Assembly (NCBI GenBank): GCA_964538435.1
Contig: CAZIDX010000001.1
Span: 139,304 to 203,303 of the forward strand
Direction: 5' to 3'
Origin: an uncultured Gammaproteobacteria bacterium
Lineage (GTDB): Bacteria; Patescibacteriota; Patescibacteriia; UBA9934; GWF2-40-263
Length of the DNA stretch: 64,000 nt
Position numbers and translations under genes: made by a program. The notes beneath the pieces are model-generated. The model did not search any database and was not told where the DNA came from. It saw only the letters and a list, made by a program, of their open reading frames with translations. This document shows positions 696-63,980 of this stretch, in pieces; the first letter of the stretch is position 1, and every line of letters starts with the position of its first letter.

Positions 696-820
696 ATCGC
701 AACTATCATATCATATTTAAAAAGTGCTGATTGTTGTCAAAAAACAAGACAAAACCCTTGACAAAAGCTTAAAAACAAGGTAATCCTTAATGGCCGATTT
801 TGGCTGAAAGGAAGGTATCG

Positions 821-2161: not shown

Positions 2162-2760
2162 GTGCGCTCACCTGCCCGGAGTGTGGGACCACTTATCCCA
2201 AAGGCACCCCCATGTGTCTGGATGACGGCCACATCTTCGTCAAGACAGATGCAGGTCAACAGAGCGCTGAGCTTGCAGAGGAGCCTATCCAGCTGCCGGC
2301 CCCGCGCAACGGCAAGCTGGCAAGACTCGAGCCTGGACCGGGTCCCCAGTTCTACATCGATGTGACACATGTCGATGGAACGGACTTCCCGCCAGGAACA
2401 CATCTCCAGCACTTTCCCCTCGAGCATCTCACTCGGGGCGAGCTGCGCGTAGGACGACGCACCAGAGGAAAACGGACACCCTACCAGCCTGAGGTCGATT
2501 TCCTAGACCTCATTCGAGATCACGCACTGGGAGGTCATGTGATCATCTCTCGCCTGCAGGCCACCCTGCTCATGGACGAGAGTGTTCCAGCGATTCGGCA
2601 TCAGCCCGATCAGATCACGACCTGGATACGGCGCTCAGGATCACCTGACAACAGAGCCCTGCGACCAAACCAGGTCGCCAAGCTGCGCCAACGCGACGTC
2701 ATCACATTCGGAAAGCCAGCACTGCGCTACGTGCGCGTCCGTGTTTGGTGGGACGAATAG
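2158..2760 (+). CDS. Zinc-ribbon plus FHA (forkhead-associated) domain protein, translationally coupled to the vWA gene
   Basis: N-terminal CPECG...C ribbon. FHA-like region: GELRVGRR...EVDFLDL...VIISRLQATLLMDES...SGSPDNRALRPNQVAKLRQRDVITFGKPALRYV. The ATG overlaps the upstream stop. Confidence 0.6.
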   Translation: MSALTCPECGTTYPKGTPMCLDDGHIFVKTDAGQQSAELAEEPIQLPAPRNGKLARLEPGPGPQFYIDVTHVDGTDFPPGTHLQHFPLEHLTRGELRVGRRTRGKRTPYQPEVDFLDLIRDHALGGHVIISRLQATLLMDESVPAIRHQPDQITTWIRRSGSPDNRALRPNQVAKLRQRDVITFGKPALRYVRVRVWWDE

Positions 2761-2774
2761 ACGCACAACCCCGC

Positions 2775-2842
2775 ACTCGTTAGAGTCCGGGGTTTTCTAT
2801 TACGCAAATTGAAAACCGAGTCCTTTCAGACCCGGTCGTTTC
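2775..2842. terminator. Back-to-back hairpin terminators separating the convergent genes 2158..2760 and 2843..3577
   Basis: Hairpin aaccccg...cggggtt followed by TTTTCTATTACG (+ strand). Hairpin gaccgggtc...gactcggt followed by TTTTCAATTTG (read on the - strand). Confidence 0.55.
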
Positions 2843-3577
2843 TCAGTAGCCCAGACCGAGAGCATTCTCGATCAGAACATTATGTGAAGCCACGAATCGG
2901 CTTCCGATGTTGTCGCGCTCATCCTGAAGCGCGCGCATGAGACCTTCTTCCCGCAAGCAAGCAGGATTGGATTCGGCCAACGCACTCGCATGCATAAGCG
3001 CTCGCGCCCACTCCTCGAACTTCTCGTCCGTGGGGGCTACAGCCACGCTCAAGTAGCACTTGTACTGCCCAGGCCATTGCACACCCGCCAGTGGGAACTC
3101 ACCGCCAGCATCTGCATCCACACACGCCACGATCTCGTCCACGATGATCGGATCACGGATCTCCTCGTAGAGTTCACGGGTACCAGCGAGAGGACCACCT
3201 TCCGCAGCTTGACGCGTTCCACCGAACAGAGAGAATCGACCGCGACATTCCGGGTTGGGGTGCTTGTGATCCTTCTTCTGCAGCAGAACCGAGTCGAGTG
3301 ATGCGTTCGCGATCACGGTCACAGCTCCGAACAGCCCCATGCGCTCGAACCTCACGAGCATCCAGGACCGAATCGCAGCAGCGCGGTGTTCATTGATCGA
3401 GACACGATCCAGACGACCATTCACCTTGACAGACGCCAGCTGTCCGTTCAAGGACAGCAGAACCGCGTCATCAGCCTCAGGGATACCGAGAAGTCGGCGC
3501 ACCCAGGCGTCCTCACCCTCCTTGGCATGATCCGGGTGTCGCCCCGGAGTCAGCTCGATCGGACAACTCACCAGCAT
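2843..3577 (-). CDS. Hypothetical protein (G+C-rich, 244 aa), convergent with the vWA/FHA pair
   Basis: Complete ORF with an AGGAGG RBS 4 nt upstream. No motif I can assign. Confidence 0.5.
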   Translation of the reverse strand: MLVSCPIELTPGRHPDHAKEGEDAWVRRLLGIPEADDAVLLSLNGQLASVKVNGRLDRVSINEHRAAAIRSWMLVRFERMGLFGAVTVIANASLDSVLLQKKDHKHPNPECRGRFSLFGGTRQAAEGGPLAGTRELYEEIRDPIIVDEIVACVDADAGGEFPLAGVQWPGQYKCYLSVAVAPTDEKFEEWARALMHASALAESNPACLREEGLMRALQDERDNIGSRFVASHNVLIENALGLGY

Positions 3578-4263: not shown

Positions 4264-4292
4264 ACAAAAAAACCGGCCTTGCGGCTGGTTTT

Positions 4293-5189
4293 TTAATTAA
4301 GCTCCTTGTCAATTGCCTGCATGCTCTCAATGCGTTTTTCAATTTTTGTCTTGAATCCACTGAGTAAAATTGATGTTGCCTTAACAAGATTATCCTCACT
4401 TCCACCATCGGCTTCAATCTGATCTCTTTTTCCATAAAAAATTTCAGCTTGCCTATCTTTCAACCCAATGAAATCCAGTATCTGCTCACCACTCATCTCC
4501 TCTGAGTCCTCACCTACATCTTCTTTGCCTGCCAAGTGCTTCCAAATTTTCTCTTCAACGCTTGGGTCCAATAAAAATTCTGCTACCTCCTTTGTGTTCC
4601 TAAAAACTCGCGATTCATGCCTGAGGTTGCGATCGTATTGTTTCCTGAGCTCCTGCAATGTCAATACTTTGAATCCAAATGCTGTATCCTTGCGTCTTTG
4701 AAACGCTTGAGGATCCACCATGATTGATTTGTAAAAAAACTCAAATGGGTAATCAACCTTCACCGGCCCATCCGCCCCCTGCACCTCAACCTGCAAAACC
4801 CCACCAAGCCTTCTTACCTCTTCACCCTTGTACCGCTTATAACGCCCCTTGTTCGCAAATTTGACTCCAGGAATATTTCTCAAACGTCTCCTGATTTCAT
4901 TAAGAGAATCAAGGCTCTCAACAGCAACGTCTAGATCACCAGGAAAAACCTCTTTCAATGAATCAATATCCCTTTTCATGCCCTGCAAAAATCTAGCTGT
5001 GCTAGCAAACACAACATAATCAGGAATATCCTGAAGCGCATCACGAATCTGAGTGAGTGCTGTCTCCATTGCTTGTTGCTTAATCTCAATCGGAACATCA
5101 TCACTCTCAATATCAAGAGCCTCAGGCTGCGGCTCCTGCACCTCAGCTAATTTTGCTTGATCTAATTCAAAAGCACACATACTTCCCAA
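4293..5189 (-). CDS. Nucleotidyltransferase-fold (pol-beta superfamily-like) protein, function unknown
   Basis: VVFASTARFLQGMKRDIDS...GDLDVAV resembles the minimal NTase signature (G/S-x9-13-DxD). The rest is unrecognised. Confidence 0.35.
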   Translation of the reverse strand: MGSMCAFELDQAKLAEVQEPQPEALDIESDDVPIEIKQQAMETALTQIRDALQDIPDYVVFASTARFLQGMKRDIDSLKEVFPGDLDVAVESLDSLNEIRRRLRNIPGVKFANKGRYKRYKGEEVRRLGGVLQVEVQGADGPVKVDYPFEFFYKSIMVDPQAFQRRKDTAFGFKVLTLQELRKQYDRNLRHESRVFRNTKEVAEFLLDPSVEEKIWKHLAGKEDVGEDSEEMSGEQILDFIGLKDRQAEIFYGKRDQIEADGGSEDNLVKATSILLSGFKTKIEKRIESMQAIDKELN

Positions 5190-7435: not shown

Positions 7436-9187
7436 TTATTGCGCAGAGATTAAATTCTTAATCTGATCTGCTGCTGTCTTTGCAAGTCCTTTAAGCTTGT
7501 CCTCGTCTGTCTCTAGTTTTGCTTTTGCAATCTCATCCTTAAACGGAAGCTCCGAAAGGTCTTTTACTTTTACATCCTTCTCTACAGCCTGAGTAGCATT
7601 CTCATGGAAGGTCATAATAGCCTTTAGCATGAGGTACATCCGTGCAGGAGGTGTGTATCCATCAACATCATCAAACGCAAACTGCTGCAAGTAGTCCTCA
7701 CGAATTGACTTGGCAGTATCAAGCACAACCTGCTCCTTTGCAGAGAGCGCATCAAGACCAACAAGCTTTACAATCTCCTGCAAACTGGACTCTTCCTGAA
7801 GAATTCCCATTGCTTCCATTCGCATTTCAGGCCAATCATTTCCAAAGTTCGCTCTCGCGTACTCTTCAATGTTATCCGTGTAAAGAGAGTAACTGTTGAG
7901 CCAATGAATCGCTGGGAAGTGACGTCGGTTAGCAAGCCCAGAGTCAAGCCCCCAGAACACCTTTGTCACACGAAGCGTGTTCTGTGTAACAGGCTCTGAA
8001 AGGTCTCCACCAGGAGGACTCACCGCACCAATAACAGAAAGTGACCCCTTGCGATCATCTTCTCCAAGACAGTTCACAGCACCAGCACGCTCGTAGAACG
8101 CAGCTGTTCGTGAACCCAAGTACGCTGGGTATCCCTCCTCACCAGGCATCTCCTCTAGTCGTCCAGAGATCTCACGAAGCGCCTCAGCCCATCGTGAAGT
8201 TGAGTCAGCCATAAGAGCCACATTGTAGCCCATGTCTCGGTAATACTCTGCCAAAGTAATTCCTGTGTACACAGACGCCTCACGCGCTGCCACAGGCATG
8301 TTTGATGTGTTTGCGATCATGGATGTTCGTTCCATGAGTGGCTTTCCTGACTTCGGGTCAATAAGCTCCGGGAACTCAACCAACACGTCTGTCATCTCGT
8401 TTCCACGCTCACCACAACCAATGTAGATGATGATGTCAGCATCACAATGCTTAGCAAGCGACTGCTGCGTCACGGTCTTTCCTGCTCCAAACGGTCCAGG
8501 AATACATGCTGCTCCACCTTTAACCAGTGGGAAGAATGTGTCCAAAATGCGCTGCCCAGTCACAAGCGGAGTCTTAGGCAAAACCTTTTCCTTGTACGGT
8601 CGTGGCTTTCGAATCGGCCATTTCTGCATCATTTGAATCTCAACATCTCCAACCTTCCCGATCACTTCTTCCACAGTGTATGAACCACTCTTTACTCCGG
8701 TGATCGTTCCCTCCACTCCAGGCGGCACCATGATTTTGTGCTCAATAAGATCGGTTTCTTGAACGGTTCCGATAACATCACCAGGATGCACTGGCTCACC
8801 ATCGCTCATAAGGGCCTTAAAGTCCCATTTCTTTTCACGGTCAAGTCCAGGCGCCTCAATTCCTTTTGTAATGTAAGGAGACTGAGCGATGCGTTCGATC
8901 GACTCAAGAGGGCGCTGAACACCGTCATAAATTGATTTCAAGATTCCGGGCCCAAGCTCTACAGAGAGAGGCATTCCTGTCATAAGTACTGGGTCACCTG
9001 GTTTGAGACCAGCTGTATCCTCGTACACCTGAATGGATGCCGTGTCACCCTGGAGTTTGATGATTTCACCCACAAGCTTGTGCTCACCGATTTTAACCAC
9101 GTCGAACATTCGCGCGTTGGTCATTTCAGCGGCAACCACAAGTGGTCCAGAAACCTTGATGATAACTCCGTTGTGTTCTTTCGCCAT
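7436..9187 (-). CDS. atpA: A/V-type ATP synthase catalytic subunit A
   Basis: 583 aa with Walker A motif GPFGAGKT and A-subunit-specific non-homologous region. Confidence 0.9.
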
Positions 9188-9524: not shown

Positions 9525-10523
9525 TTAGTACGTATCTACAAGATGCTTTCGAATCTCTGAAGGCTCAATCTCACCAAACTTCAATGCCATGATTGTGCTC
9601 AGATTCTTGATCGCAAATTTCTTTCCAAAGTAATACGCAACCACCACTTCAGGCCCATACCCAATAAGCTTAGCCTTCTTGAGATGATCAATGATCACAT
9701 TATTGATTCCCCGAGACAGTCTCCAGATCTCCCTATCCTTCATGTAGTCCTCAATGTGCTCATCAAGCATCGGCGGAAAGTAATTTCTAAGCTGACCTAC
9801 AAATTCTGCTTCATCCGCAGAATCAACATGAGCCATAAAAACATGTAATGAGATATTCCCATAACTGTTTAAACGTTCCTTGACCCACGCAGAACTCTTT
9901 CCAAGTCTCTTTCCGCGAAGCAATAGCTTGATATTGTTTTTGTCAGCAAAGTACTTGTACAAATCAATAATAAATTGATTGCCAATCTTCTTTGCGATTG
10001 AGTGCTCAATGTGATTGAGCTTCTGGTCAACAAGATTTTCAATTCGCTCTGCATCAACCTCTTCTCCAATCTCTTGCTTAAGCTCGTCAATGTCTCTCTT
10101 TACTTTTTCATCAATCTCAGCACCAAGATCCTCAACAATATATCGTCGAAGCTGATCAATCGGGATAAGACCAGGCGCTGTCTCAAGGTGGTCCTCATAA
10201 TTCTCACCAGAAACTTTTTCTTTAAACAGTATCTTGATGTTGTAAAAATCTCGTTCAAGGAACAAAAGTCGCATGAGCTTTGGTTCAGGAATCGTCTGCT
10301 CAAACACTTTCTTGAGTCGGCTCATCTTTCGGCTCATGGCAACGCGGTAATCCTTTGCTTCCAAATCAAGAAGCTCACCCGCATAGTCAAGACTATTAAA
10401 AGCCTTAAACGCAATATCAGGCGTTTTTGCATCGATCACACGTGTCATGTCCGCATCGCTCAAAAGATGTTTCTCTAGGGAGCGAATCTTGGAACTGACG
10501 TAGATGTAATTATCGCGTGACAT
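9525..10523 (-). CDS. atpC: A/V-type ATP synthase subunit C (V-type d)
   Basis: 332-aa helical protein in the expected position. Confidence 0.7.
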   Translation of the reverse strand: MSRDNYIYVSSKIRSLEKHLLSDADMTRVIDAKTPDIAFKAFNSLDYAGELLDLEAKDYRVAMSRKMSRLKKVFEQTIPEPKLMRLLFLERDFYNIKILFKEKVSGENYEDHLETAPGLIPIDQLRRYIVEDLGAEIDEKVKRDIDELKQEIGEEVDAERIENLVDQKLNHIEHSIAKKIGNQFIIDLYKYFADKNNIKLLLRGKRLGKSSAWVKERLNSYGNISLHVFMAHVDSADEAEFVGQLRNYFPPMLDEHIEDYMKDREIWRLSRGINNVIIDHLKKAKLIGYGPEVVVAYYFGKKFAIKNLSTIMALKFGEIEPSEIRKHLVDTY

Positions 10524-10526
10524 GGA

Positions 10527-11093
10527 TTATGCGTTAAACATGGATTGATAAACCTCAATGAGCGATTGCTCACGAACCCGTTCCATAATGGTTTCAAAAC
10601 GGAAGTCGCGATCAATCGACTTACTCTGAAAGACAAACCCACCCACTGTCTCAATCGCGTCAGTAGAAATACTTGCTTTACAACCTGCCTTTTTCGCAGC
10701 TGCCGCAAGTTCAGCATGACGCTCTTTTGATGTAAGGAGCTCCCCTTCCTCGTCCTTGATTGACGAGAGCAACGTCTCAAGCAAGGCTTCATACTCACCC
10801 TTAGGAAGCTTTGCAACTTCCTCAAGAGCATCTGCATACACACTGTCAAGCTGAGCCTGTTTTGTACCAAGAAGCTTCGCGTTTACTTTTTCACGAATCT
10901 TAAACTTAGCCTGAGCAAGCTTTGAGTCAGTGTACCGTTCAATATCTTTAAGAAGACGCTCCTTTTCTTCACCTAAACGAACTTTCCACTCTTTTTCAAG
11001 AGCGGCTAGTTCATCTGAAGAACGCTTCTCAATGACTTTGATTTCATCGGCAGCCTTGTCCTTGATGTACTGTTGAATATCGTCAAAAGCCAT
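10527..11093 (-). CDS. atpE: A/V-type ATP synthase subunit E
   Basis: 188 aa, charged coiled-coil N-terminus, operon position. Confidence 0.7.
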   Translation of the reverse strand: MAFDDIQQYIKDKAADEIKVIEKRSSDELAALEKEWKVRLGEEKERLLKDIERYTDSKLAQAKFKIREKVNAKLLGTKQAQLDSVYADALEEVAKLPKGEYEALLETLLSSIKDEEGELLTSKERHAELAAAAKKAGCKASISTDAIETVGGFVFQSKSIDRDFRFETIMERVREQSLIEVYQSMFNA

Positions 11094-14975: not shown

Positions 14976-16013
14976 CTAGTTGTCTTCGTTTTCCGACTCC
15001 GAGTAGAATCCGGTCACGAAGTTGGCCTGGAACCAATCAGGGTCTGATCGGTCACGACCCAATTCGAGCTCCTCAACGCATCGATAGAGCATCTCGCCGA
15101 AGTCAATGTCCGGCTGGCCGCTACCCGATTTCCCGTCGCGGTAGAGGTTAGCATACACCTTCCACTGTTCGAGTCGGTCTGCACCTTGCTGAGCCAGCGC
15201 AGGACTGCGGTTACGCGACCAGCGAACTGCGACCAGCAGATCCTGATACAAACGCCTCCACCGAGGTGTACGAAGCACGGCTTTTGCGCGGTCCGTGATG
15301 GCGCGTTTGCGAACCGGCGGAGCCGTCCCAGCAACGTGATCATCACCGTCACCGTGCCTGCGCGAACCAGGCTTTCTTTCCGGCTCCGGCTTCGGCTTCG
15401 GCTCAGGTTCGGGCTCCGGCTCCGGTTTCGGTTTCGGTTTCGGCTCCGGCTCCGGTTTCGGCTCGGGCTCCGGCACAGGTTCGGGCTCCGGCTCAGGTTC
15501 GGGCTCGTCAGACACCACCTTTCTGTCTCTCACCGAACTCAGATCCAGACCTTCGAAAAGATCTACCCGCTTGACCGGCTCGGCATCGTGCATCATGTCC
15601 GCGTCAGTGCCACCAAACGGATCATCTACTTCCTCGTCTGAACCATCACCGTCTCCGGCCTCTGGCTCATCCTTACTCTCTTCGTCGGGTGGTTCTGTCG
15701 GCTCAGGTTCGGGCTCCGGCTCCGGTTTCGGCTCCGGTTCCTCCTCTTCTTCACCCTCCTGCTCAGCCGCACGCAACTTCCCCCACAAATCAATACGGGG
15801 GTCATCTGCATGAGCCTTGATGTACTCGGCCGGATTGTCGTGGAAATCCATGGACTCGTTCCATGCCTCCGCAACACCCAATGCCTCAGCCATGTCCTCA
15901 CCGTCGATCCCATCCTCGTCATCGAGATAGGTGTCGACATGCTCCTCAGTAGCAATGTCGGGATCATCCCCAAACAAAGCCTGAAGGGCATCTTCGAAGC
16001 TGTATTCGGCCAT
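14976..16013 (-). CDS. Highly acidic Pro/Glu/Lys-repeat protein (G+C-rich cassette)
   Basis: Long PEPEPEPEP / [19 protein letters not shown] tracts, an Asp/Glu-rich N-terminus and a basic Arg/Trp-containing C-terminus. GGAGGG RBS before the ATG at 16013; a hairpin terminator lies downstream at ~14895-14945. Confidence 0.6.
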
Positions 16014-16178
16014 TGGGCCCTCCGTTGTGTGTGGTTTGACAGCCAAAATCGTCATCAAGGACGACTTGGGCAACCGTGCAAGATAACACAAATTGACCCT
16101 TTTGTCAACAAAATGAGACAAGATTTGCTTGTTATCTTACTAAATGTTGTTAACTCTCAACATATATGCCAATCACGG

Positions 16179-16207
16179 TTGACAAAATCTCCATTTTCTG
16201 GTATTCT
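16179..16207 (+). promoter_or_regulatory. Near-consensus sigma70-type promoter for gene 16359..18098
   Basis: TTGACA (16179-16184), 17-nt spacer, TATTCT (16202-16207). Confidence 0.5.
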
Positions 16208-16358
16208 GCGCCTCTGGCACTAACATGCCCAAGTCGTCCTTTTTACCAAAAACAGTCTTGGCAAAAGTGTCTTTATAGACATTTCTGCCGAGACTGTTTC
16301 CCAACCCTCAATCAGCGTGTCTCTCGGAGCGCTGCACCCGACCCTAAGGAGGTCAAAC

Positions 16359-18098
16359 ATGGCAACTCAGAACCCACTCGTTCGCGACTCCAGCACCGGG
16401 CGTTTCATCGCCATCGTCGACGACATCGTCCTGCTCATGGCTCATCAGGAACCCGACTTCAATCGCAACCGCGGCAAGGCCATCAAGCGTGTTCGTGCGC
16501 GCATGATCATGGACCCCAAGAACGACAAGCTGCCGATCCGCGACGAGGTCGACTTCCGTCCGGTCCCGGGCGCGAACGCCTCCGGCTTCACCATCTCCTT
16601 CAACGAGAAGGGCATCCCCTTCGTAGACCCCTGCAAGACCATGGGTCTGCGCGCCGAGGCCATGCTGCCCGGCAAGGACGGCAACCTCGTGGAGACCTCG
16701 GTCCGCCCCGCCTTCGTGTGCGACGGCCTGTCCGGGTTCATCCCGTACGTGCAGCGCATCAAGGCCAAGGATGCCCAGGGTGAGCCCGGCACCGACGGCT
16801 ACAAGCCGGCCGTGCACACCTGGACCTCCACCGGCAAGATGCCCTGCATCTTCTTCCAGCCCCCGATCAAGAAGGGCAAGAAGGCCCCGCCGCCCGTGGC
16901 CGTTCCCCTGGGCCTGGCGCGTCCGTTCCTACTGGATGCCTGGAAGACCCTGGTCGAGCACCCGGATCGCCAGCACGCCACCCGCAAGCTCTTCGTGATC
17001 GAGCCGATCGCGAACAACCTGCGTGGCAACAAGCGCCACCTGGTCTTCACCCCGCGCGGCAACCCCTACACCCCGGTGTGGTACAACAAGAGCGCGGACA
17101 AGCTCCGCGATGCGCTCAAGCGCAAGCTCAACGGCGAAGCCAACGTGGTCATCCCCAGCCCGGATGGTCAGGTCCTGACCCACCTCTTCGGTAAGGTCGT
17201 GACCCCGATCACGCACAAGACCGAGACCCCGGTCGAGTACGACCTGCCCGGTGGCAAGACCGGCTGCGTCCCCTGCGTGTTCCGCATCCAGGAGCAGAGC
17301 GGTGTGGTCAAGGCCATCTACAAGGGTGAGAAGCGCCACATGGGCAACCTGGTCGCACAGGACCTGAGCTTGGACGACCTCGAGTTCAACGCGCTCACGG
17401 CCCTGGGCCTGACCATGGAGACGGCCATGACCGGCCGTGCTCTGCGCAAGCTCAAGAACAAGCTCCTGCGCGGCCCCCAGGACCAGACCAACCCCCTGTA
17501 CATGCAGGCGGTCGAGTCCTCGGGTCTCGAGCCCGGCCACCACAAGGCACAGGCCAGTGGCCCCATGCGCTTCATCGCTGACTCCGCGGTCGAGCAGGTC
17601 GAGACTCAGCTCAACGAGGAGATCAACCTGATCGCCGGCAAGCTGATCATGCCCGGTCACCGCGACAAGCCCGAACTGGTGACGCTCCTCGGCGAACTGG
17701 ACGGCACCAAGCTTCGCGAGGCCGCGTTCCAGCGCGAGGGTGCCTGCATCCTGGCCACCTGGGTCGCCAAGACCCAGAACTGGGACGAGTTCAGCTGGGG
17801 CTCCGAGCTGCACCGCCGCGTGCGCTACAAGGTCCTCATGAGCCTGGCCAAGGCCGCCGACCTCAAGATGGCCCCCAAGCCCAAGCCCAAGCCCGCCCCG
17901 GAGCCCACCAACGGTTCCGGCTCCGCGGATCAGGGCTCCGAGGGTGGCTCCAACACGCCCAAGGACGGTGGCAATCAGAAGGCCGCCAGCGACTCCGAGG
18001 CCCCGGCCGAGGAGACCCCTCGCGAGCGCAAGAACCGTCTCGCCCGCGAGCGCCGCGCCAAGGCCAAGGCCAAGAAGCTGGCCGAAGAGAGTGCTTAG
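16359..18098 (+). CDS. Hypothetical 580-aa protein with a Lys/Ala/Glu-rich disordered C-terminal tail (G+C-rich cassette)
   Basis: AGGAGG RBS 6 nt before the ATG at 16359. No recognisable catalytic motif. The C-terminus ...KPKPKPAPEP...RERKNRLARERRAKAKAKKLAEESA suggests nucleic-acid or polyanion binding. Confidence 0.55.
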   Translation: MATQNPLVRDSSTGRFIAIVDDIVLLMAHQEPDFNRNRGKAIKRVRARMIMDPKNDKLPIRDEVDFRPVPGANASGFTISFNEKGIPFVDPCKTMGLRAEAMLPGKDGNLVETSVRPAFVCDGLSGFIPYVQRIKAKDAQGEPGTDGYKPAVHTWTSTGKMPCIFFQPPIKKGKKAPPPVAVPLGLARPFLLDAWKTLVEHPDRQHATRKLFVIEPIANNLRGNKRHLVFTPRGNPYTPVWYNKSADKLRDALKRKLNGEANVVIPSPDGQVLTHLFGKVVTPITHKTETPVEYDLPGGKTGCVPCVFRIQEQSGVVKAIYKGEKRHMGNLVAQDLSLDDLEFNALTALGLTMETAMTGRALRKLKNKLLRGPQDQTNPLYMQAVESSGLEPGHHKAQASGPMRFIADSAVEQVETQLNEEINLIAGKLIMPGHRDKPELVTLLGELDGTKLREAAFQREGACILATWVAKTQNWDEFSWGSELHRRVRYKVLMSLAKAADLKMAPKPKPKPAPEPTNGSGSADQGSEGGSNTPKDGGNQKAASDSEAPAEETPRERKNRLARERRAKAKAKKLAEESA

Positions 18099-31179: not shown

Positions 31180-31218
31180 TCAAACAAAAAACTCTCCGGA
31201 CTTCCGGAGAGTTTTTGA

Positions 31219-33200: not shown

Positions 33201-33851
33201 TCACTTAATGACTTTCAATGTTAAATCAGACCAATGAGGTTTTAAGATATGCGCCCAAATCACGACACTGAGCAGCGCACAGAAAAAACACCACACTGAG
33301 GTAAATGTGAGAGTATAAAACGTCCAAGACACCCACGCAGCTATACCAGTAAGCACACCAAATAACTTCAAGAATGGATGAGTAGCTATGAGAAACGATC
33401 CAACCGTTCCAGCAATATAGATCGCAATCCCAATCGTCTCAAATGGGATATCGATTCTGTATTGAATGCTGCCACCAACCTCAACTACTTCAAGAGGATT
33501 GATAAAAAGCGAGATAAGTAAATACAATGAACCAACCAACCCAAAAAACACAAACACCTTGAGAATCTTTTTTCTCTTCTTATTTATCTCATGCATGTAA
33601 CACGCCAGTGGGATATAGAGCGGCCAAAACAAAAATGCAAAGAACAAAAACATATACGCCGCCACCAAACTGTGCCAGGTATACGCCGGTAGCACCCATA
33701 CCAACCCTTCAAAAAACTGTTGGAAGGCGAAAATGAACGGTATTGTCGCAAGGATCACGTCTTGTTTTGTTCTGGACCGACTCATGGTGTGAACACCAGC
33801 CGCCCCAAGCACGGCACTTGCTGTAAAACTCGCTGCTGCAGAAAAACACAT
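33201..33851 (-). CDS. Multi-pass membrane protein
   Basis: 216 aa with about six TM helices. Confidence 0.4.
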   Translation of the reverse strand: MCFSAAASFTASAVLGAAGVHTMSRSRTKQDVILATIPFIFAFQQFFEGLVWVLPAYTWHSLVAAYMFLFFAFLFWPLYIPLACYMHEINKKRKKILKVFVFFGLVGSLYLLISLFINPLEVVEVGGSIQYRIDIPFETIGIAIYIAGTVGSFLIATHPFLKLFGVLTGIAAWVSWTFYTLTFTSVWCFFCALLSVVIWAHILKPHWSDLTLKVIK

Positions 33852-33946
33852 AGTAAATTCATTATATCAACAACCAACCGTTGACAGAAACGAGCCGTAG
33901 TAGCAAGGTCTAAGCGGACAGCAAAAGCAAACCCTCTGGAGATACC

Positions 33947-35041
33947 ATGATGTCTGGAGAATTCAACCAACATGGTGGTCTCACACTCGTTGGACTGCGC
34001 GGGTACGAGGCTCTCATCAACACCGTCAAGGACCTCATCGAAACCAAGAGTGGCAACGATGGAGGGAAGACCCCACACACCCCCGTGGACATCGTCCGCC
34101 CCGAGATCAAGCGCTTCGCAAACGGCGAACCTGATGTCCGCCTGCGCAAGCAACATGTCGGTGGTCATGACATCGTCGTAGTGACCTCGGGTCCTGGCAC
34201 AAACGACATGATCATGGAAACACTCTGGGTACTCAACCACCTGGCAGCACATCGCGCATCGCGCATCATGCTGGTGACTGGGTATTTTCCACTCAGCCGA
34301 TCCGACAAGGACGAAGCTGAGGTGCGTCTGACCACTCCACCCATGGTGATCAACTGGTTCAAGATGGCTTCCATGCACCCCAATGGTAAGGACTGCCTAC
34401 TCTGTCGTGTGGTCTGTGCTGACCCGCACAGCGTCCAGCTCACTATGGCCGGAGACTCTGGGTTCATCACCCCGATCTTCTTGACCCGGCGCCTGCTTCG
34501 CCCCACCATTACGGACGCTCTCGAGCAGAACAAGCGCATTGCCCTGGCATTCCCAGACAACAGCGCTGTCGCTCGATTCGAGCCCGCCATTCTCAAGGTG
34601 CAGAAGTCCCTGGACATCGAAATTCCCATCGTGGTCGCAATCAAGCGGCGAGACATGCTCACAGGCAAGTCCACGCTCGTGGGAATGCAAGGAGACCTGG
34701 AGAATCTCGAGGGATCTCTGGTTATCATGTGCGACGACGAGATCGACACCGGTGGCAGCATCATGAACATGGCCACGCTTCTCAGGGACATGTACAAGGT
34801 CGACTCCGTGTGGGCCGCTGTCATTCATGCCGTGTTCAGCGACCCGGCTCCACAACGCTTCATGTTCGCGGACTCACCCGTGGATCGCGTTCTTGCTATG
34901 AACACGATCCCGCACAACAACCGTTCCGAGATCGCCCCTCTGATCGAGTGTGGACGACTGAACATGTATCCCTGGCTCGAAGATCTGGCCTGGTTGATTC
35001 TCATGCACCACTGGAAGGTGGGCATGCGAGAAGCCCGCTAG
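33947..35041 (+). CDS. Divergent ribose-phosphate pyrophosphokinase (PRPP synthetase, Prs) homologue in a G+C-rich cassette
   Basis: SGPGTNDMIMETLWVLNHLAAHRASRIMLVTGYFPLSRSDK aligns with E. coli Prs [42 protein letters not shown]. The C-terminal PRPP-binding loop LVIMCDDEIDTGGS is present. GGAG RBS. The terminator ends GGTTTTCTCATAATTTG. Confidence 0.6.
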   Translation: MMSGEFNQHGGLTLVGLRGYEALINTVKDLIETKSGNDGGKTPHTPVDIVRPEIKRFANGEPDVRLRKQHVGGHDIVVVTSGPGTNDMIMETLWVLNHLAAHRASRIMLVTGYFPLSRSDKDEAEVRLTTPPMVINWFKMASMHPNGKDCLLCRVVCADPHSVQLTMAGDSGFITPIFLTRRLLRPTITDALEQNKRIALAFPDNSAVARFEPAILKVQKSLDIEIPIVVAIKRRDMLTGKSTLVGMQGDLENLEGSLVIMCDDEIDTGGSIMNMATLLRDMYKVDSVWAAVIHAVFSDPAPQRFMFADSPVDRVLAMNTIPHNNRSEIAPLIECGRLNMYPWLEDLAWLILMHHWKVGMREAR

Positions 35042-35131
35042 AACAAAACGACCCGCTTCTCTCTGAGAACCGGGTTTTCTCATAATTTGACATTAGACAA
35101 ACTCACAAAAAAACGAGAGAATGTGATTATT

Positions 35132-36250: not shown

Positions 36251-36296
36251 ACAAAAAACACTCTCGCAACAACGAGGGTGTTTTTATTATGTCGAT

Positions 36297-40004: not shown

Positions 40005-40919
40005 CTAGGCCGCGGTCGCCTGCTGACCAGCGCGTCGCTTGGCCTCGGCAGCAGTGCGTGCGAGCGCGTCATCGAGAGAACGCTCGGCCTTACGCTTACT
40101 TGCTCGGTCCTCCTCGAACTCCTCGGCCATGCTGTCGAGCTTGGCCTTGAGCTCATCCATCCGGCCTTCATCCACGCTGCTCGCGAAGATGCCGGCCAGG
40201 ATGTAGTCCAGGAACGCTGGCGTGCTACGAATCTGCGCGACCCGCTGCTCGTACTTGGCCTTCACAGCCTCGTACTCGGCACGGATCTTGACCGCGTATT
40301 CCGAATCGTCTCCTTCGTACCGCTTCACGATCTTACTCAGCTCGTGCACGGCCACTGCCAGCTTTGCTTCGTCCTCAATGTAGGACGGGAGGCAGGTGCC
40401 CACGAGCCACTCGATGCGGTCACTGATCGAACCAGCTACCATCCCGGCCTCGGGTGCGGCCTTGCGAATCTGCTCGATACCGCGACGCACAGCACCACGA
40501 ACCGAGAGCATACGCAGCCGGCGAAGCGGGGCGAACTTGAGCGAGAGCCATTTCCAGCCACGCTTGAGCAGTCCACCGGTTCCCTGCAGCGCAGCCTGAG
40601 CCGTGAAGCTCAGCACGATGACCACGAGGCCTTGTAGGAAGCTGATCAGGTCCATCCCCCACACACCGACCCCGAAGAGAATCGCAGTGATCGCGTAGAA
40701 CACGGTGGAGTAGATCCAGCCGTAGCCAGAGAACACACCGTCAGGCAGCTTGGTCTCTCCCTTGTTCTTGAGGAACAACTGAGTCGACTCGTGCACCTGC
40801 TTGATGTTGCGGAACATGAACACGGCGCCCATGAACGTTGTCAGGCCCATGAGCCCGAGGTAGAGCATGGTCTGCGTGAACGTAACCATATGCGAGAGGA
40901 AAGTGATGGTAATGTCCAT
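40005..40919 (-). CDS. 3-TM membrane protein with a long cytoplasmic coiled-coil tail (G+C-rich cassette), divergent from the PNP-like gene
   Basis: GGAGGG RBS before the ATG at 40919. Three N-terminal hydrophobic helices, then a charged Ala/Glu/Lys/Arg-rich helical C-terminus. Confidence 0.55.
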   Translation of the reverse strand: MDITITFLSHMVTFTQTMLYLGLMGLTTFMGAVFMFRNIKQVHESTQLFLKNKGETKLPDGVFSGYGWIYSTVFYAITAILFGVGVWGMDLISFLQGLVVIVLSFTAQAALQGTGGLLKRGWKWLSLKFAPLRRLRMLSVRGAVRRGIEQIRKAAPEAGMVAGSISDRIEWLVGTCLPSYIEDEAKLAVAVHELSKIVKRYEGDDSEYAVKIRAEYEAVKAKYEQRVAQIRSTPAFLDYILAGIFASSVDEGRMDELKAKLDSMAEEFEEDRASKRKAERSLDDALARTAAEAKRRAGQQATAA

Positions 40920-40967
40920 CTGATGCCCTCCACGGCTTGTTGTTTCAGGAAGCTTGGAAACAAGAAA

Positions 40968-40992
40968 AACTACCATAAAACGGTAGTTTTGT
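40968..40992. promoter_or_regulatory. Perfect 9-bp-arm palindrome aaaactacc-ataaaac-ggtagtttt inside the divergent promoter region
   Basis: Lies between the putative -35 (TTGACA) and -10 (TAGTTT) of the minus-strand gene 40005..40919, so it is operator-like. Confidence 0.4.
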
Positions 40993-41056
40993 CAAGCAAT
41001 AAGTATGATATTTTACCAATAATCCGCCAATTCTAAAGAAAACTGACATTTTGAAG

Positions 41057-41084
41057 TTGACACTCCATCAAAAACCGCTAGAAT
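41057..41084 (+). promoter_or_regulatory. Near-consensus promoter for the PNP-like gene
   Basis: TTGACA (41057-41062), 16-nt spacer, TAGAAT (41079-41084). Confidence 0.5.
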
Positions 41085-41121
41085 GCCCATCTGCCCAAAC
41101 CAAGACAGGAGGTCTTCGCGC

Positions 41122-42027
41122 ATGGGACGACTCAGAGAAGAAGGAATCAAAATCCTCAAGGCACACGGAACCGATCCCACTGGATCCAATGCCATGGGGC
41201 TCATCCTGGGCACAGGCTGGTCTGATCCTGACGTGCTCAACGGACTCGGTCTCAAGATCGAAGAAGTCATTCACTTCAGCGAGGTCGGCATCGATCCTGG
41301 CACTGGCGCCGGTCATCCGAACTGCTTCCTGCTCGGCACATGGCATGGGCGAGAGGTTGTGCTCAGCCACGGTCGCGTGCACATGTACCAGGACCGCGCT
41401 GCGCGCTGCGCAAGCGAGTCCATCCTCCGCAAGTGGTTCGCGGTCTTCCTAGCTCTGATGGGAGACGGTCGCAAGATCGTGCCCACCAGCTCAGTCGGTG
41501 GTGTCGGCCACAAGACCAAGGCTGGCATGGTCGTCAAGCCGGTCGGCCTCATCTCAGCTCACCTCCCTCAGACCTACCTGGACGGCAACGCTGGCGAGTT
41601 CGTCATGGGCGAGCACCTGATCTGGGACAACCACGCCGAATTCAACATCGACCGAACGCACCTCGCCCTGCTGTTCAGGCAGGCCGCGCGTGAAGCCGAT
41701 CTCAAGCCCGACCTCTACGGTCAGCACATCGTGGTTCCTGGCCCCGGCTTCGGAGGCGCTGCCGAGCGCAACCTCTGGGACCAGTGGGGCATCAAGTCTG
41801 TGGGCATGTCCCTCGATCCCGAGCTGCGACTCCTCGCCCTCGAGATGATGACCAACGACTCGGACGAGCCCGAGTACGAGGTCCTCCCAGCCTTCATCGT
41901 CACGGACGACCACGATCTCCCCATCCACGAACAGATCCAGGCCGCAGCCAAGGCCCGTGCCCCCCAGCTCGGCCGCTTCCTCTCCCATGTCGTACGCACC
42001 GACTGGGACGCAATCACCCTGCCCTAA
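41122..42027 (+). CDS. Purine nucleoside phosphorylase family-2 (PNP/MTAP-like) homologue in a G+C-rich cassette
   Basis: AMGLILGTGWSD...EVIHFSEVGIDPGTGAGHPNCFLLGTWHGREVVLSHGRVHMYQ aligns with human PNP GSGLGGL...[49 protein letters not shown] matches GMSTVPE. AGGAGG RBS. The terminator ends GGGTTTTCTATTTC. Confidence 0.65.
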   Translation: MGRLREEGIKILKAHGTDPTGSNAMGLILGTGWSDPDVLNGLGLKIEEVIHFSEVGIDPGTGAGHPNCFLLGTWHGREVVLSHGRVHMYQDRAARCASESILRKWFAVFLALMGDGRKIVPTSSVGGVGHKTKAGMVVKPVGLISAHLPQTYLDGNAGEFVMGEHLIWDNHAEFNIDRTHLALLFRQAAREADLKPDLYGQHIVVPGPGFGGAAERNLWDQWGIKSVGMSLDPELRLLALEMMTNDSDEPEYEVLPAFIVTDDHDLPIHEQIQAAAKARAPQLGRFLSHVVRTDWDAITLP

Positions 42028-42093
42028 TCGGTAGGGTTTTCTATTTCAAACAAACAGAAAACCGCCCAGACTTACGTCAAAGGCGGCGCGTAG

Positions 42094-42738
42094 CTACCAG
42101 GCCCTGTTGAACGTTCCCGTTGCAAACAGTGGCAGCTCTTCGATGTGTTCATCTAATGTGTTCAAAGGATCGTACACCCCGTCCAAAATCCACAGATCCA
42201 TGATCTGAGCCCGAACGTTTGTTGACCCAAAGTACTCCCAGTCCTCTCCTGCCTCTGCTCTGCGCACATCCCCGATCATAAGGATATCGCGAAACAGCGG
42301 CGGTGGCGATTGCATGGAACCCACGAAGGTTCCATTCTCGCACCAGAAGTGACCTCCGTTGAACGTGAAAAAGTGATCATCGGTCATGCTCGATTCGTAG
42401 GAGTCGAACACTCCTTCAGCATCGAGAAACAACTCGTCATCATCGACACGTAGGAGCAACATGCTCTCGATCTCGATCTCTGGCTCAACATCGAGCCAAC
42501 CGCTCACAGAACCATCAAAGAGTTCTGGATCGGTTGTGGTGATGAAGATCACGCGGTCAGAGTACTCAATGTCTTCACCCTGAAAGGCATCGAAAAAGCT
42601 CGTATGACACTCGGTCTGAAGCACGTCCTCAGCAAGCTCCTTGTCAACAGGCTGCACAACGCAACCCACCAACAGAAGCAGAAGACTACATCGCACGACT
42701 AAACTTCCCATGGGCATGACGTGACATCGTGGCCACAT
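42094..42738 (-). CDS. Lipoprotein, paralogue A (G+C-rich cassette)
   Basis: Signal peptide with lipobox LLLLVGC. Paralogous to 42686..43297 (shared ...EDWEYFGS.../...EEFWVAYDED... and ...WILDGVYD.../...WLLDGEYS... blocks). The start is uncertain (ATG at 42711-42738). Confidence 0.5.
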   Translation of the reverse strand: MWPRCHVMPMGSLVVRCSLLLLLVGCVVQPVDKELAEDVLQTECHTSFFDAFQGEDIEYSDRVIFITTTDPELFDGSVSGWLDVEPEIEIESMLLLRVDDDELFLDAEGVFDSYESSMTDDHFFTFNGGHFWCENGTFVGSMQSPPPLFRDILMIGDVRRAEAGEDWEYFGSTNVRAQIMDLWILDGVYDPLNTLDEHIEELPLFATGTFNRAW

Positions 42739-49682: not shown

Positions 49683-49708
49683 TCAAAAAACCGGCTCAGG
49701 CCGGTTTT

Positions 49709-50195: not shown

Positions 50196-51269
50196 TCAAC
50201 CCCAGTGAATCTGTCTCTGATGTCGTATCAGAGCTCGCTTCACTGCTCGAAGCTGGTCTCGTATCTCACTCTCCTCGGTGGGAAGAGGCTCGAGAAGAAA
50301 TGGACATTCACTGAGCACAGCCCTCACATCTATGTTGCTCGGCCCCTGATCCACTCGGGCTGGATCAAGTCCCAGCATGGTAGGCGCGAAAAGCTCGTTC
50401 ATGGTGAGCAACGTATACTCACGCGTCTCAACGAAACTCTGACCCACGTCTCCGACCACACATCCCTCCTTGCCCTGCCAGACCTCCTCAGCCACCTGAG
50501 CGTAACGCTCAGAAGCGATTGTCTGCTCATGAAGCAAGCAAAGATCTGTGAACGTCTTTCCTGAAGAAGGCCCCTTCTCCTCAGTCACGTGGAAGATGGC
50601 CTGTGATAGAACCACCATCAAGTCCATACCGTGCTTCTTGCAGGACTCCCAGGTCCGAGCAACGCCCTGCCACGACCCAGCAGCCACAAAGAGAATGATT
50701 CGCGCAGGCATGCGCCCACCTTCCTCCTGCGCCTTCTGAGCAATGAATTCGACCATTGCCTCACCAGTCGACCCGGACGCCATTGCCCCTTCGGCAATGA
50801 TGATATTCTCGGCAAAGAAGTAGCCCTTGTGAGAATCCCTCACCACCGCCTTCCACACACCGGGCGACACTTCCCTGCGCCCCGCCTCCATAAAGGACGT
50901 TTGCAAGGGAAGGATGTTGTGCTCATCAAAGAGATCAGCCATCCCCTTCCACGCGCGAAAGTACAGACCCCCGTTGAGCGGAACCCATTGCGCGAAGTTG
51001 CCGCTGAGATCACGGAGTTCATCACCCACCGCCCAAATCATGCTGCGTATCAGGTGCTTTGCAGCACGAATTCGATCACGTCCCATGACCATACGATGGA
51101 AGAACACCTCTCCAGGCGCCGATTCCACAACGTACATACGAGGTGGGAACGCGTCTGGTCTCAAGCGAAAATTCATTCGCAGACGAACCGTGTCCAAATC
51201 CCATTTGGTAATGGAAGGTTGACCAGGAACACGTACCTCCTGAGGCACACCAACATCTTCAAGAAGCAT
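50196..51269 (-). CDS. Hypothetical G+C-rich protein with a possible type-I PRTase (UPRTase-like) region
   Basis: AAAGGAGG RBS before the ATG at 51269. IIIAEGAMASGSTGEAMVEFIAQ...ARIILFVAAGSWQGVA loosely resembles Upp DPMLATGGSVIATIDLL...IKVLVLVAAPEGIAAL. The terminator ends GGGGGTTTTCTATTTG. Confidence 0.4.
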   Translation of the reverse strand: MLLEDVGVPQEVRVPGQPSITKWDLDTVRLRMNFRLRPDAFPPRMYVVESAPGEVFFHRMVMGRDRIRAAKHLIRSMIWAVGDELRDLSGNFAQWVPLNGGLYFRAWKGMADLFDEHNILPLQTSFMEAGRREVSPGVWKAVVRDSHKGYFFAENIIIAEGAMASGSTGEAMVEFIAQKAQEEGGRMPARIILFVAAGSWQGVARTWESCKKHGMDLMVVLSQAIFHVTEEKGPSSGKTFTDLCLLHEQTIASERYAQVAEEVWQGKEGCVVGDVGQSFVETREYTLLTMNELFAPTMLGLDPARVDQGPSNIDVRAVLSECPFLLEPLPTEESEIRDQLRAVKRALIRHQRQIHWG

Positions 51270-51378
51270 GTCGCCTCCTTTCATTGCGCCCAAACCCTAG
51301 CAATACTCTGTTTTTTTGTAAATAGTTCTACAAAAAGCTTGTTGTTCGTGATACCATCACAGTTGAATACTTCACACT

Positions 51379-53279: not shown

Positions 53280-53368
53280 ACTTATTTCAGTACTACAGTG
53301 AGCGTATTGACAAAACCCTCATTTTGTGGCACTATTCCTCACCACTGTTTCCCGAAAGGAGCAGAAAC

Positions 53369-53812
53369 ATGAATCAGTTCTTCGCTCGACTCCTGAGCAT
53401 CCGTATCTTCCGAGGTCAAAGCACGACCACCAAGCAGAAGAACGCACGCGCGTTCACGATCGAGATGACTCCTCTCACCGACGAGTCTGCCCAATGGGCC
53501 TCCAAGTACTGGAACACGGACGAGGGCGGCATCTTCTACATCCGCGCCTGCTACGCCCCCAGCTCCGCAATACCCAACGACGGCATGGCACTGCGGTACA
53601 TGGAGCGACACCTCACCGAGTTCCGCTCAGGCCGTCTGCGCTTCGAGCTCAAGATCGCCCGCCCCGAACAGACCCCCACGCTCGTGGATGACATGGTGCA
53701 GGAGTTCCCACCCAGCATCCTCATCACCCGCCGCAACATCGTCCGCATCTCACAGGACGACGGCACGAACGACGGCATCGACCTGCTCAACGAACTGGGC
53801 ATGAGTGCCTAG
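53369..53812 (+). CDS. Hypothetical 147-aa protein (G+C-rich cassette)
   Basis: AAGGAG RBS. The terminator acccgcagc...gctgcgggt plus T-run follows at ~53835-53875. Upstream TTGACA at ~53307. Confidence 0.5.
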   Translation: MNQFFARLLSIRIFRGQSTTTKQKNARAFTIEMTPLTDESAQWASKYWNTDEGGIFYIRACYAPSSAIPNDGMALRYMERHLTEFRSGRLRFELKIARPEQTPTLVDDMVQEFPPSILITRRNIVRISQDDGTNDGIDLLNELGMSA

Positions 53813-63023: not shown

Positions 63024-63710
63024 TTAGCCGTCCACGACTGCGATCTCGAACGGAATCTTGGCCACACCCTTGTCACCATCCGGGACCGGGCAGTAGCCTT
63101 CGTCCGAACTGGGATCTGCGTAGTAGACGGTCATGTGCTGACCATCGTTGTGTACCTCGCAGGTGACACCCGGGAACTCGGTTCCGCTCTTGAGCTTCGC
63201 GGCGTAGGTGCCGTCCTCGAAGTCGTAGCCCGGCAGCAGAGGCAGGACCAGCGACCCGTCATGGCCGGGCGCAGTGTAGATGACCGTGCTCTCGTTCCCA
63301 TGCCACGTGCCAGCACGAGGCCAGCAGGCCATGTCCGAGGCATCGAGCAGATCCAGCCCGACCTCGAGCACGTGCTGCTTACCCTTGTGGTCCGTGGCCG
63401 AGCAGGTCGCCACAGCAGGAACATCCTCGAGCGGGAACATCTCCCGCGGCAGGTCGATCAAGATCGTGAGGTCGCCCATCTCGTTGACCGCACAGGTCAT
63501 CGGGGACCAGGAGCTCTCGAGCACCTTGGTGTTGTCAGGCCGATCCAGCACAGGGATGACCTCTTCCCAGGTCTCGAAGACCAGACTGGTTTCCCCACCA
63601 TCGAAGACGAGGTCCGGGCACAGCTCGAGCGTGACACCGTCATGCGTGACGGTCGCACCCGCCTGCGCGAAGGAAGACAGAAGAACAGCGAAAGACAGAA
63701 GGAACTTCAT
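63024..63710 (-). CDS. Secreted protein (G+C-rich cassette)
   Basis: Signal peptide MKFLLSFAVLLSSFAQA. Six Cys residues. The terminator (read on - strand) ccagtctcacttgtggggctggTTTTCTAATTTC lies downstream at ~62975-63020. Confidence 0.5.
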   Translation of the reverse strand: MKFLLSFAVLLSSFAQAGATVTHDGVTLELCPDLVFDGGETSLVFETWEEVIPVLDRPDNTKVLESSWSPMTCAVNEMGDLTILIDLPREMFPLEDVPAVATCSATDHKGKQHVLEVGLDLLDASDMACWPRAGTWHGNESTVIYTAPGHDGSLVLPLLPGYDFEDGTYAAKLKSGTEFPGVTCEVHNDGQHMTVYYADPSSDEGYCPVPDGDKGVAKIPFEIAVVDG

Positions 63711-63734
63711 GAGGTTCTCAGGGGTTCGGGGTTG

Positions 63735-63980
63735 CTACTCGTAGGAGTAGTCATCGCCTTCGGCGGTTTCTGTGACGTAGGTCCAGGACCTGCACTCGCA
63801 CGAATGCGCGACAACGCACCCGTTCCAAGAGCTGCACTGAGAGAAGTAGTTCGGTAAGCCGATCTCCTCGCAGTGGGTCTTGCATTCCTCATGCTTCTCA
63901 GCACAGGTCTCGCAGTCGTCACACGACCCGGCATACACCGGAATCGTGAGAATCAACATCAGTGTCAGAAGGAGCTTCAC
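63735..63980 (-). CDS. Small Cys-rich secreted protein (81 aa, 10 Cys)
   Basis: Signal peptide MKLLLTLMLILTIPVYAGS, then CDDCETCAEKHEECKTHCEE...CSSWNGCVVAHSCEC. Confidence 0.5.
   Translation of the reverse strand: MKLLLTLMLILTIPVYAGSCDDCETCAEKHEECKTHCEEIGLPNYFSQCSSWNGCVVAHSCECRSWTYVTETAEGDDYSYE

Follow-up and report, generated by a model that had tools for sequence, protein, structure and literature searches.

What does a G+C-rich gene resembling that for phosphoribosyl pyrophosphate (PRPP) synthetase (Prs) do in a 64,000-nucleotide stretch of contig CAZIDX010000001.1 (assembly GCA_964538435.1; the whole stretch is called the window below), and how did it get there? An initial annotation, made from the nucleotide letters, had described the gene product as an isolated, divergent Prs paralogue with a replaced catalytic segment, and had proposed either a role in nucleotide-based conflict and toxin modules or the horizontal acquisition of a salvage enzyme. 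The observation is largely real, but its central element had been misread: the catalytic machinery is intact. We give the name PrsL to the protein and to the family to which it belongs; a literature search did not find a description of this subfamily. The reading that we favour, and hold to be probable, is that PrsL is an active ribose-phosphate diphosphokinase, predicted as such from its sequence, and that it represents a distinct and undescribed Prs subfamily, centred on Patescibacteria, in which regulation has been rewired.

Fold and mapped residues of PrsL

The two phosphoribosyltransferase (PRTase)-like domains of the PRPP synthase superfamily are present in PrsL, with Pfam matches above the gathering scores to Pribosyltran_N (1.7e-11), Pribosyltran and Pribosyl_synth. 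An AlphaFold2 model built from a 23-sequence family alignment reached a mean predicted local distance difference test (pLDDT) score of 89.9. When this model was compared with the PDB using Foldseek, the top 50 matches were all PRPP synthases, at target-normalised template modelling (TM) scores of 0.84-0.87 and identities of 20-24%; the alignments cover the whole of the targets, and the Prs fold spans the full length of PrsL. Among proteins of known structure, those most similar to PrsL in sequence are class I PRPP synthases, with E values of 2e-15 and weaker. The homology to PRPP synthetase claimed at the outset is sound, and the divergence was equally well seen: full-length PrsL proteins reach 126 bits or more and ordinary Prs no more than 83 bits, which leaves a clean gap between them, and the identity to solved structures is as low as stated above. 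Against TIGR01251 (ribP_PPkin) the protein scores 108.9 bits, just below the cut-off of 113, and it lies far under every cut-off of the equivalog models of NCBIfam.

PrsL is 45-50 residues longer than Prs. The initial annotation had placed the additional length in extensions at both ends; there is indeed an N-terminal one, but of only ~9 aa, and the remainder is made up by several internal insertions. No extension exists at the C-terminus, which in the alignment stops where that of E. coli Prs stops; the C-terminal helices of the model, at residues 343-354 and 359-362, align to the E. coli C-terminus.

Residues were mapped by alignment to the Prs of E. coli MG1655, and conservation was counted over 45 family members. 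In the E. coli enzyme, the regulatory flexible (RF) loop comprises Y94-T109, and D220, D221, T225 and T228 contact ribose 5-phosphate; these residue roles were taken from PMC9232217, and the role of Lys194 as a catalytic residue of PRPS1 from PMC13586617. The segment FPLSRSDKDEAEV of PrsL and the motif DDEIDTGGS are both present, as first reported. The former, however, aligns with the RF-loop stretch that contains FGYARQDRR and not with the catalytic loop, and its supposedly replaced part, FPLSRSDKDE, is a signature of the whole PrsL family. The catalytic loop is intact, with the pair K194 and R196 present as K233 and R235. Also kept are both Mg ligands, H131 and D170 (H161 and D204 in PrsL), and the ribose 5-phosphate contacts D220, D221, T225 and T228 (D263, D264, T268 and S271); in the adenine pocket, F35, D37 and E39 correspond to F57, N59 and E61. 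Every mapped catalytic or substrate-contacting residue of the superfamily has its equivalent, including the adenosine triphosphate (ATP) contacts R118 and K121, and the equivalents of E39, R96, H131, D170, R196, D220 and D221 are invariant (45/45).

Positions that serve regulation in class I enzymes have changed. The RF loop of the window protein keeps R96, D98 and R99 as R118, D120 and K121, and Q97 has become Ser; a Lys at the R99 position occurs in the human and mycobacterial enzymes as well. In place of the basic residues R100 and R102 the loop has D122 and A124, and the third, R105, is present as R127; Glu occupies this last position in 36 of the 45 family members, and the family loop reads K-D-E-G-x-x-E. 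At allosteric site 2 none of the five residues is retained: R102, E133, F147, S149 and R178 have given way to A124, V163, L179, R181 and E212. The filament-interface residues R302, N305 and E307 are M353, W356 and V358. PrsL thus lacks the combination of a basic RF loop and allosteric site 2 through which class I enzymes respond to adenosine diphosphate (ADP). In most family members the adenine-stacking F35 is Arg, D37 is Ser or Asn and D224 is Ala.

A single Uhrbacteria subclade carries Ala in place of K194, with the motifs DAERE, SADRV and AARRK (loci L018, L023, L027, L029, L031, L032 and L037 in our numbering, with the genes at ~10001-11050 of each locus). The ratio of nonsynonymous to synonymous substitution rates (dN/dS) is 0.07 for the pair L031/L037, and because purifying selection persists at this strength, the proteins of the subclade must still be functional, with catalysis possibly altered or lost.

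Taken together, these positions allow a model for PrsL to be proposed. Most likely, PrsL would move the beta,gamma-diphosphoryl group of ATP onto C1 of ribose 5-phosphate, like ordinary Prs, and the PRPP formed would supply nucleotide and nicotinamide adenine dinucleotide (NAD) salvage. In the RF loop two of three basic residues are missing and acidic ones have been added, and most family members lack all three and have a net acidic loop; the nucleotide-binding allosteric site 2 of class I enzymes is gone. Because the loop is altered and the site replaced, classical control by ADP and inorganic phosphate has probably been lost. In some Patescibacteria, PrsL would work beside an ordinary Prs as a second isozyme. 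[quoted passage not shown] Models of the nucleotide economy of these symbionts would differ according to the role assigned to PrsL, be it that of an unregulated isozyme, of a partner subunit or of an enzyme for another substrate.

Distribution, inheritance and coexistence with ordinary Prs

Rather than an isolated stand-alone gene, PrsL is a member of a conserved family. Among 5.8 billion proteins searched, the identical one was found on a 285,363-bp contig, along with a relative at 74% identity, one at 55% from Candidatus Uhrbacteria, and over 100 full-length proteins (353-370 aa) that share 38-46% identity, of which the named ones are mostly from Patescibacteria. The family signatures are GYFPL(S/G)RSDKDEG, DDEI(A/D)TGG(T/S) and, near the C-terminus, HHW..IRE.R. 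Of 1.84 billion cluster representatives, only 49 reached E<=1e-30 in an exhaustive HMMER pass, and the family as named here amounts to about 50 clusters at 50% identity. Species-representative genomes hold 49 PrsL loci, in Uhr-, Magasanik- and Vogelbacteria and in unnamed Patescibacteria. Those from outside Patescibacteria form one tight clade from Gemmatimonadota/Longimicrobiales and Polyangiales (L006-L010, L013, L040 and L047, on MAG contigs of up to 262 kb), which nests inside Patescibacteria diversity in a neighbour-joining tree that was drawn without bootstrap and is indicative only. A single transfer of PrsL out of Patescibacteria into this clade is suggested. The genes upstream of PrsL in Polyangiales encode a 183-aa PRTase and a bactofilin. 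Many loci (L003, L016, L018, L020, L026, L029, L034, L042, L044 and L045) are titled 'uncultured Gammaproteobacteria bacterium', yet their PrsL is of the Patescibacteria type, as is the gene order in several, for example TsaD-PrsL-DnaE in L034 and L044; L003 is a 1.0-Mb chromosome. Such titles look like placeholder taxonomy.

The reduced-genome host envisaged initially is borne out by best matches to, and synteny with, Candidatus Uhrbacteria. The neighbourhood found in the window, RskA_C-like / RarA (MgsA) / DUF6629 / PrsL, is common to the Uhrbacteria loci L002, L005 and L046, and the window PrsL groups with these same loci in the unbootstrapped tree. In Magasanikbacteria-type loci the gene order is TsaD-PrsL-DnaE, and over eight such loci pairwise PrsL identity correlates with that of DnaE (r 0.87) and of TsaD (r 0.83); this tracking of the flanking genes argues for vertical inheritance and against recent transfer. 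The dN/dS values of PrsL, 0.07-0.3, denote purifying selection, and its divergence is about twice that of its neighbours. All-against-all clustering of ~840 neighbouring open reading frames (ORFs) found no universal partner gene, only synteny at the level of lineages (TsaD, DnaE, MutY-like, RarA and DUF6629). The contexts of PrsL are housekeeping ones in about 50 loci, and NadC, a PRPP consumer, is nearby in L028, L039 and L052. PrsL is an old, vertically inherited resident of an Uhrbacteria-like lineage and is held under purifying selection.

The protein nearest to that of the window (74% aa and 75% nt identity) is encoded at 1294-2172 of L057 (ENA ERZ27245248 k141_1703629). An in-frame deletion of 75 codons, read from a single 4-kb metagenomic contig, has taken out much of its N-domain, including the domain core, the flag-region Glu and the RF loop; the GC content of the gene is 0.565, against 0.425 in its flanks.

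No other Prs homologue was found in the 64-kb window, and at most loci PrsL has no ordinary Prs within 10 kb. Two Patescibacteria genomes nevertheless carry both genes in tandem on the same strand, in the order ordinary Prs - small DUF6899 protein - uridine kinase - PrsL between TsaD and DnaE (L044 7916-11041 and L052 7829-11044). Locus L052 (PKTJ01000066.1 of GCA_002869205.1; 74,581 bp) reads NadE-NadA-NadC-NadB-TsaD-MFS-Prs-DUF6899-Udk-PrsL-DnaE. In L044, the ordinary Prs (7916-8857) stands 1.1 kb upstream of PrsL with the uridine kinase between them; it has 313 aa, 33% identity to E. coli Prs and a Pribosyltran_N match at 1e-41. In these clusters uridine kinase and PrsL evolve fast, with 41-45% identity against 66% for ordinary Prs. 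Ordinary Prs is common in Magasanikbacteria, and the large-genome phyla that have PrsL may be assumed to own it too; a paired comparison of the PrsL and ordinary-Prs homologue lists pointed to L052 but yielded nothing for chromosome OZ246408.1 (1.0 Mb) or for the contig of 285,363 bp. Because of the two tandem arrangements, PrsL can be regarded as a second Prs at least in some genomes, and can be a differently regulated isozyme.

Base composition and rival readings

The gene is as G+C-rich as had been noted, with a GC content of 0.57 and a G+C content at third codon positions (GC3) of 0.72, against ~0.45 and ~0.46 in its neighbours, and the GC-rich block coincides with the coding sequence. Genes on the + strand of the window are C/A-rich at third positions and those on the - strand G/T-rich; PrsL still lies above the genes of its own strand, and part of its compositional contrast is due to this strand asymmetry. 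Across the family, the GC3 of PrsL lies above its neighbours' median at 34 of 35 Patescibacteria loci, by +0.12 in the median case and by +0.34 at most, and in 19 of 37 loci it is the GC3-richest gene within 10 kb either side. All other recurrent families (TsaD, DnaE, L10, MutY-like and others) centre on zero excess, and the GC3 of ordinary Prs beside PrsL is host-typical (0.32-0.33). In the tandem clusters of L044 and L052, uridine kinase and PrsL reach 0.54-0.73 versus 0.26-0.36 for the rest, and in L038 a DUF84 NTPase adjoining PrsL is GC3-rich as well. Within the high-G+C phyla Gemmatimonadota and Polyangiales, the composition of PrsL equals that of its flanks and there is no excess. The codon shift runs towards C in NNY and towards G in NNR codons, and at four-fold sites C is raised and T and A are lowered. 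Even between lineages that have reached or nearly reached saturation at four-fold sites the excess is maintained, which makes it a stationary property rather than the relic of a transfer.

Two causes were considered and set aside: expression-linked codon bias, since L10, DnaE, TsaD and ordinary Prs of the same loci have host-typical GC3, and head-on orientation, which is not convincing, given that the C-rich strand carries PrsL at only 25 of 38 Patescibacteria loci. Recombination-linked GC-biased conversion and selection on the transcript are the candidates that we retain. A gene that is inherited vertically and yet is G+C-rich in the A+T-rich genomes of dozens of lineages offers a clean natural case for the study of gene-specific compositional forces.

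PrsL is not alone in the window in being GC3-rich. About 11 further genes, with GC3 of 0.59-0.90 in a backbone of ~45% GC, lie at 800-3577, 14976-18098, 40005-42738, 50196-51293, 53324-53812 and 63135-63857; most have no Pfam match, the exceptions being a VWA-domain protein (800-2161), a protein whose acidic repeats are PARP-like (14976-16121) and a product that matches PNP_UDP_1 weakly (41083-42027). Because none of them recurs in related loci, unlike PrsL, they may be true lineage-specific acquisitions. The weak nucleoside-phosphorylase match belongs to a 314-aa ORF on the + strand with a TAGAAT box abutting its ATG, and this gene may be leaderless; the public gene call for the same interval gives two short - strand ORFs (L001 17119-17397 and 17605-18039), and that annotation may be wrong. 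On the + strand GC skew is negative throughout the window, and most genes lie on the - strand. Third-position C and G frequencies are 0.33-0.44 and 0.11-0.15 in + strand genes, and 0.07-0.17 and 0.30-0.40 in - strand genes. The whole window probably falls in one replichore.

Several observations weigh against PrsL being simply an active PRPP synthase. Its identity to characterised Prs is only 20-24%, and its score is just short of the TIGR01251 cut-off. With F35 changed to Arg and D224 to Ala, most members may use a different donor or have another fine specificity, and the absence of the catalytic Lys from a subclade under strong purifying selection is hard to square with plain PRPP synthesis. 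The tandem ordinary Prs suggests that the role of PrsL is not simply redundant, the deletion in L057 hints that PrsL can be dispensable, and an active synthase does not account for the persistent GC3 excess. One alternative is that PrsL is a non-catalytic or modulatory partner of ordinary Prs, tuning its activity in mixed oligomers; the eukaryotic PRPP-synthetase-associated proteins PAP39/41 join Prs oligomers in this manner. Such a role would be consistent with the tandem pairs, with PAP1 and PAP2 being among the PDB sequence matches of PrsL, with the altered regulatory loop and filament interface and with the continuing selection on the K194-to-Ala subclade, but the window protein and 38 of the 45 family members hold the full catalytic set (K194, R196 and both Mg ligands) and an ordinary Prs is not a near neighbour at most loci, and we consider this account unlikely. 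A more speculative proposal, to which we also assign a small probability, addresses the composition. PrsL, with the adjoining uridine kinase of some genomes, would form a fast-evolving salvage module, and a gene-specific force (GC-biased conversion at a locus of diversifying exchange, or selection on the mRNA) would hold its composition off the genomic equilibrium; PrsL would then have a capacity that ordinary Prs lacks, either using another diphosphoryl donor or acceptor or escaping feedback in episymbiotic nucleotide scavenging. If true, PrsL would be a new functional Prs class specific to ultra-small bacteria.

The two explanations offered initially fared less well. That PrsL uses another acceptor or donor in conflict or counter-defence, for which we considered an Adps-like pyrophosphorylation of ADP-ribose and a nucleotide-pyrophosphorylating toxin, is quite improbable in our view. 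A PADLOC-DB 2.0 scan of PrsL and nine neighbours gave no match for PrsL and only generic AAA, methyltransferase and NUDIX matches for the neighbours; the contexts are housekeeping ones with no antitoxin-like partner; PrsL is absent from IMG/VR viral contigs; and the sole phage Adps-like similarity is 31% over 124 aa. Both Adps signatures are absent, the 5-phosphate loop DTGG(S/T) and the C-terminal helices being kept, and tblastn with a phage Namat-like protein found nothing in the window or in ~55 PrsL loci. What speaks for a conflict role is that phages have put a Prs-like fold to such a use (PMC13586617), that PrsL matches the PHROG family 'ribose-phosphate pyrophosphokinase' at 87 bits, that a NUDIX gene is close to PrsL in the window and in L018, L029, L031 and L057, that PrsL evolves ~2x faster than its neighbours, and that the changes of F35 to Arg and of D37 to Ser or Asn in most members alter the adenine pocket. 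A phage origin was rejected separately: PHROGs match only the generic Prs family, IMG/VR holds no PrsL, and INPHARED phages give only partial matches at 25-31%. The other explanation, a recent horizontal cassette from a high-G+C donor, would fit the elevated GC and GC3, the scatter of other GC3-rich genes of unknown function in the window and the presence of family members in high-G+C Gemmatimonadota and Polyangiales. It is contradicted by the closest homologues, which are from Uhrbacteria in a common neighbourhood, by the nesting of the high-G+C sequences as one tight clade inside Patescibacteria diversity, by PrsL distances that track DnaE and TsaD, and by an excess that is present in nearly all Patescibacteria loci and persists at synonymous saturation. 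We regard it as largely refuted and give it hardly any weight. Among these readings, we retain that of an active, differently regulated PRPP synthase.

Gene signals and comparison with known systems

The features of the gene and its immediate surroundings are collected in Table 1. With a divergent gene upstream and a terminator downstream, PrsL is predicted to be transcribed alone. Because the upstream gene is on the opposite strand, a promoter of its own can be inferred; the one claimed in the initial annotation was not recovered as such, since the TTGACA found in this region is perfect but is followed 17 nt further by CAAGGT, so that there is no convincing -10 box, and a promoter scan gave no entry at this position. 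The ribosome-binding site was correctly recognised, and so were the flanks, a membrane protein (DUF6629) on one side and a CMAS/cfa-type methyltransferase on the other. The terminator is likewise real, with a stem of 10 bp and one mismatch (CCCGCTTCTC / GAGAACCGGG), a TCT loop and then TTTTCTC, but the idea that it is cassette-specific did not hold up: GGGTTTTCT follows four GC-rich genes, yet strong intrinsic terminators also stand behind many low-GC genes.

Table 1. Coordinates of PrsL and associated features in the window
Feature	Position	Strand	Basis or remark
DUF6629 membrane protein, upstream of PrsL	33201-33851	-	divergent from PrsL
TTGACA, possible -35 box	33881..33886	+	read from sequence; within the 95-bp divergent intergenic region
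GGAG, ribosome-binding site	33938..33941	+	5 nt before ATG 33947, 8 nt before ATG 33950; read from sequence
PrsL coding sequence	33947..35041	+	364 aa from first ATG; 363 aa from second ATG 33950 (public-record start)
RF-loop counterpart, codons L116-P131 (LSRSDKDEAEVRLTTP)	34292..34339	+	E. coli alignment; family signature motif
Catalytic flexible loop, codons K233-R234-R235	34643..34651	+	equivalent to E. coli K194-R195-R196
Ribose 5-phosphate binding loop, codons D263-S271 (DDEIDTGGS)	34733..34759	+	equivalent to E. coli D220-T228
Intrinsic terminator	35052..35081	+	hairpin scan and RNA fold; 11 nt past the stop codon

Bidirectional intrinsic terminators stand very regularly between convergent genes of the window (2769-2835, 4267-4294, 31187-31216, 36255-36284 and 49687-49708). 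Terminators after GC-rich genes end in GGGTTTTCT, and those after low-GC genes have longer T/A tracts. A scan of the window for RNA elements returned no Rfam families and no tRNAs. Otherwise the window presents an ordinary Patescibacteria backbone, with a V/A-type ATPase operon, MetRS, TatD, RsmI-like, TruB, AhpC and leucyl aminopeptidase genes.

Among known systems, the ADP-ribose pyrophosphokinase Adps is a genuine precedent for the initial remark on Prs-like proteins in conflict. Phages use it to pyrophosphorylate ADP-ribose in NARP1, a pathway that reconstitutes NAD; its signatures are the loss of the C-terminal alpha11-alpha12 module, a remodelled PP loop (Cys215-Ser220), which binds the ATP donor, and its pairing with the NAMPT-like Namat (PMC13586617). 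PrsL resembles Adps in being a Prs-like scaffold outside the single-copy housekeeping role with degenerated Prs allosteric sites. It differs in size and architecture, Adps having ~280-297 aa without alpha11-alpha12 and PrsL 363 aa with the C-terminal helices kept. The PP loop of Adps is of the DDICDGG type, against DDEIDTGGS in PrsL (DDEIATGGT in the family); a phage Adps-like homologue from Ounavirinae (L056), which lies beside a Namat-like gene, has 297 aa and the PP loop DDICDGGYTF. The identification of PrsL with Adps was rejected on the three published points, namely module loss, PP loop and Namat neighbour.

Classical ADP allostery is absent from the PRPP synthases of class II, found in plants, and class III, found in archaea (PMC9232217). 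PrsL, with its catalytic core kept and predicted to be without the classical allosteric site, may work similarly. Its taxonomic range, Patescibacteria, is different, and it is not closer in sequence to the class III archaeal enzymes (PDB 1u9y and 4twb), with E values of 4e-5 to 4e-6 as compared with 2e-15 for mycobacterial class I. With class I PRPP synthases (E. coli and B. subtilis Prs and human PRPS1/2; PDB 7xmu, 1dkr and 2h06), PrsL shares the two-domain fold over its full length, the mapped ATP, Mg and ribose 5-phosphate contacts, the catalytic Lys/Arg pair and the C-terminal helices; it is set apart from them by the low identity and greater length given above, by Ser in place of Q97 and by the changed residues of the RF loop, allosteric site 2 and filament interface. 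Ordinary Patescibacteria Prs (L044 7916-8857; P0171) has in common with PrsL the phylum, sometimes an operon-like cluster, Ser at Q97 and Lys at R99, and is distinguished from it by a length of 313-316 aa, a GC3 of 0.32-0.33 and slow evolution, with 66% identity where PrsL has 45%.

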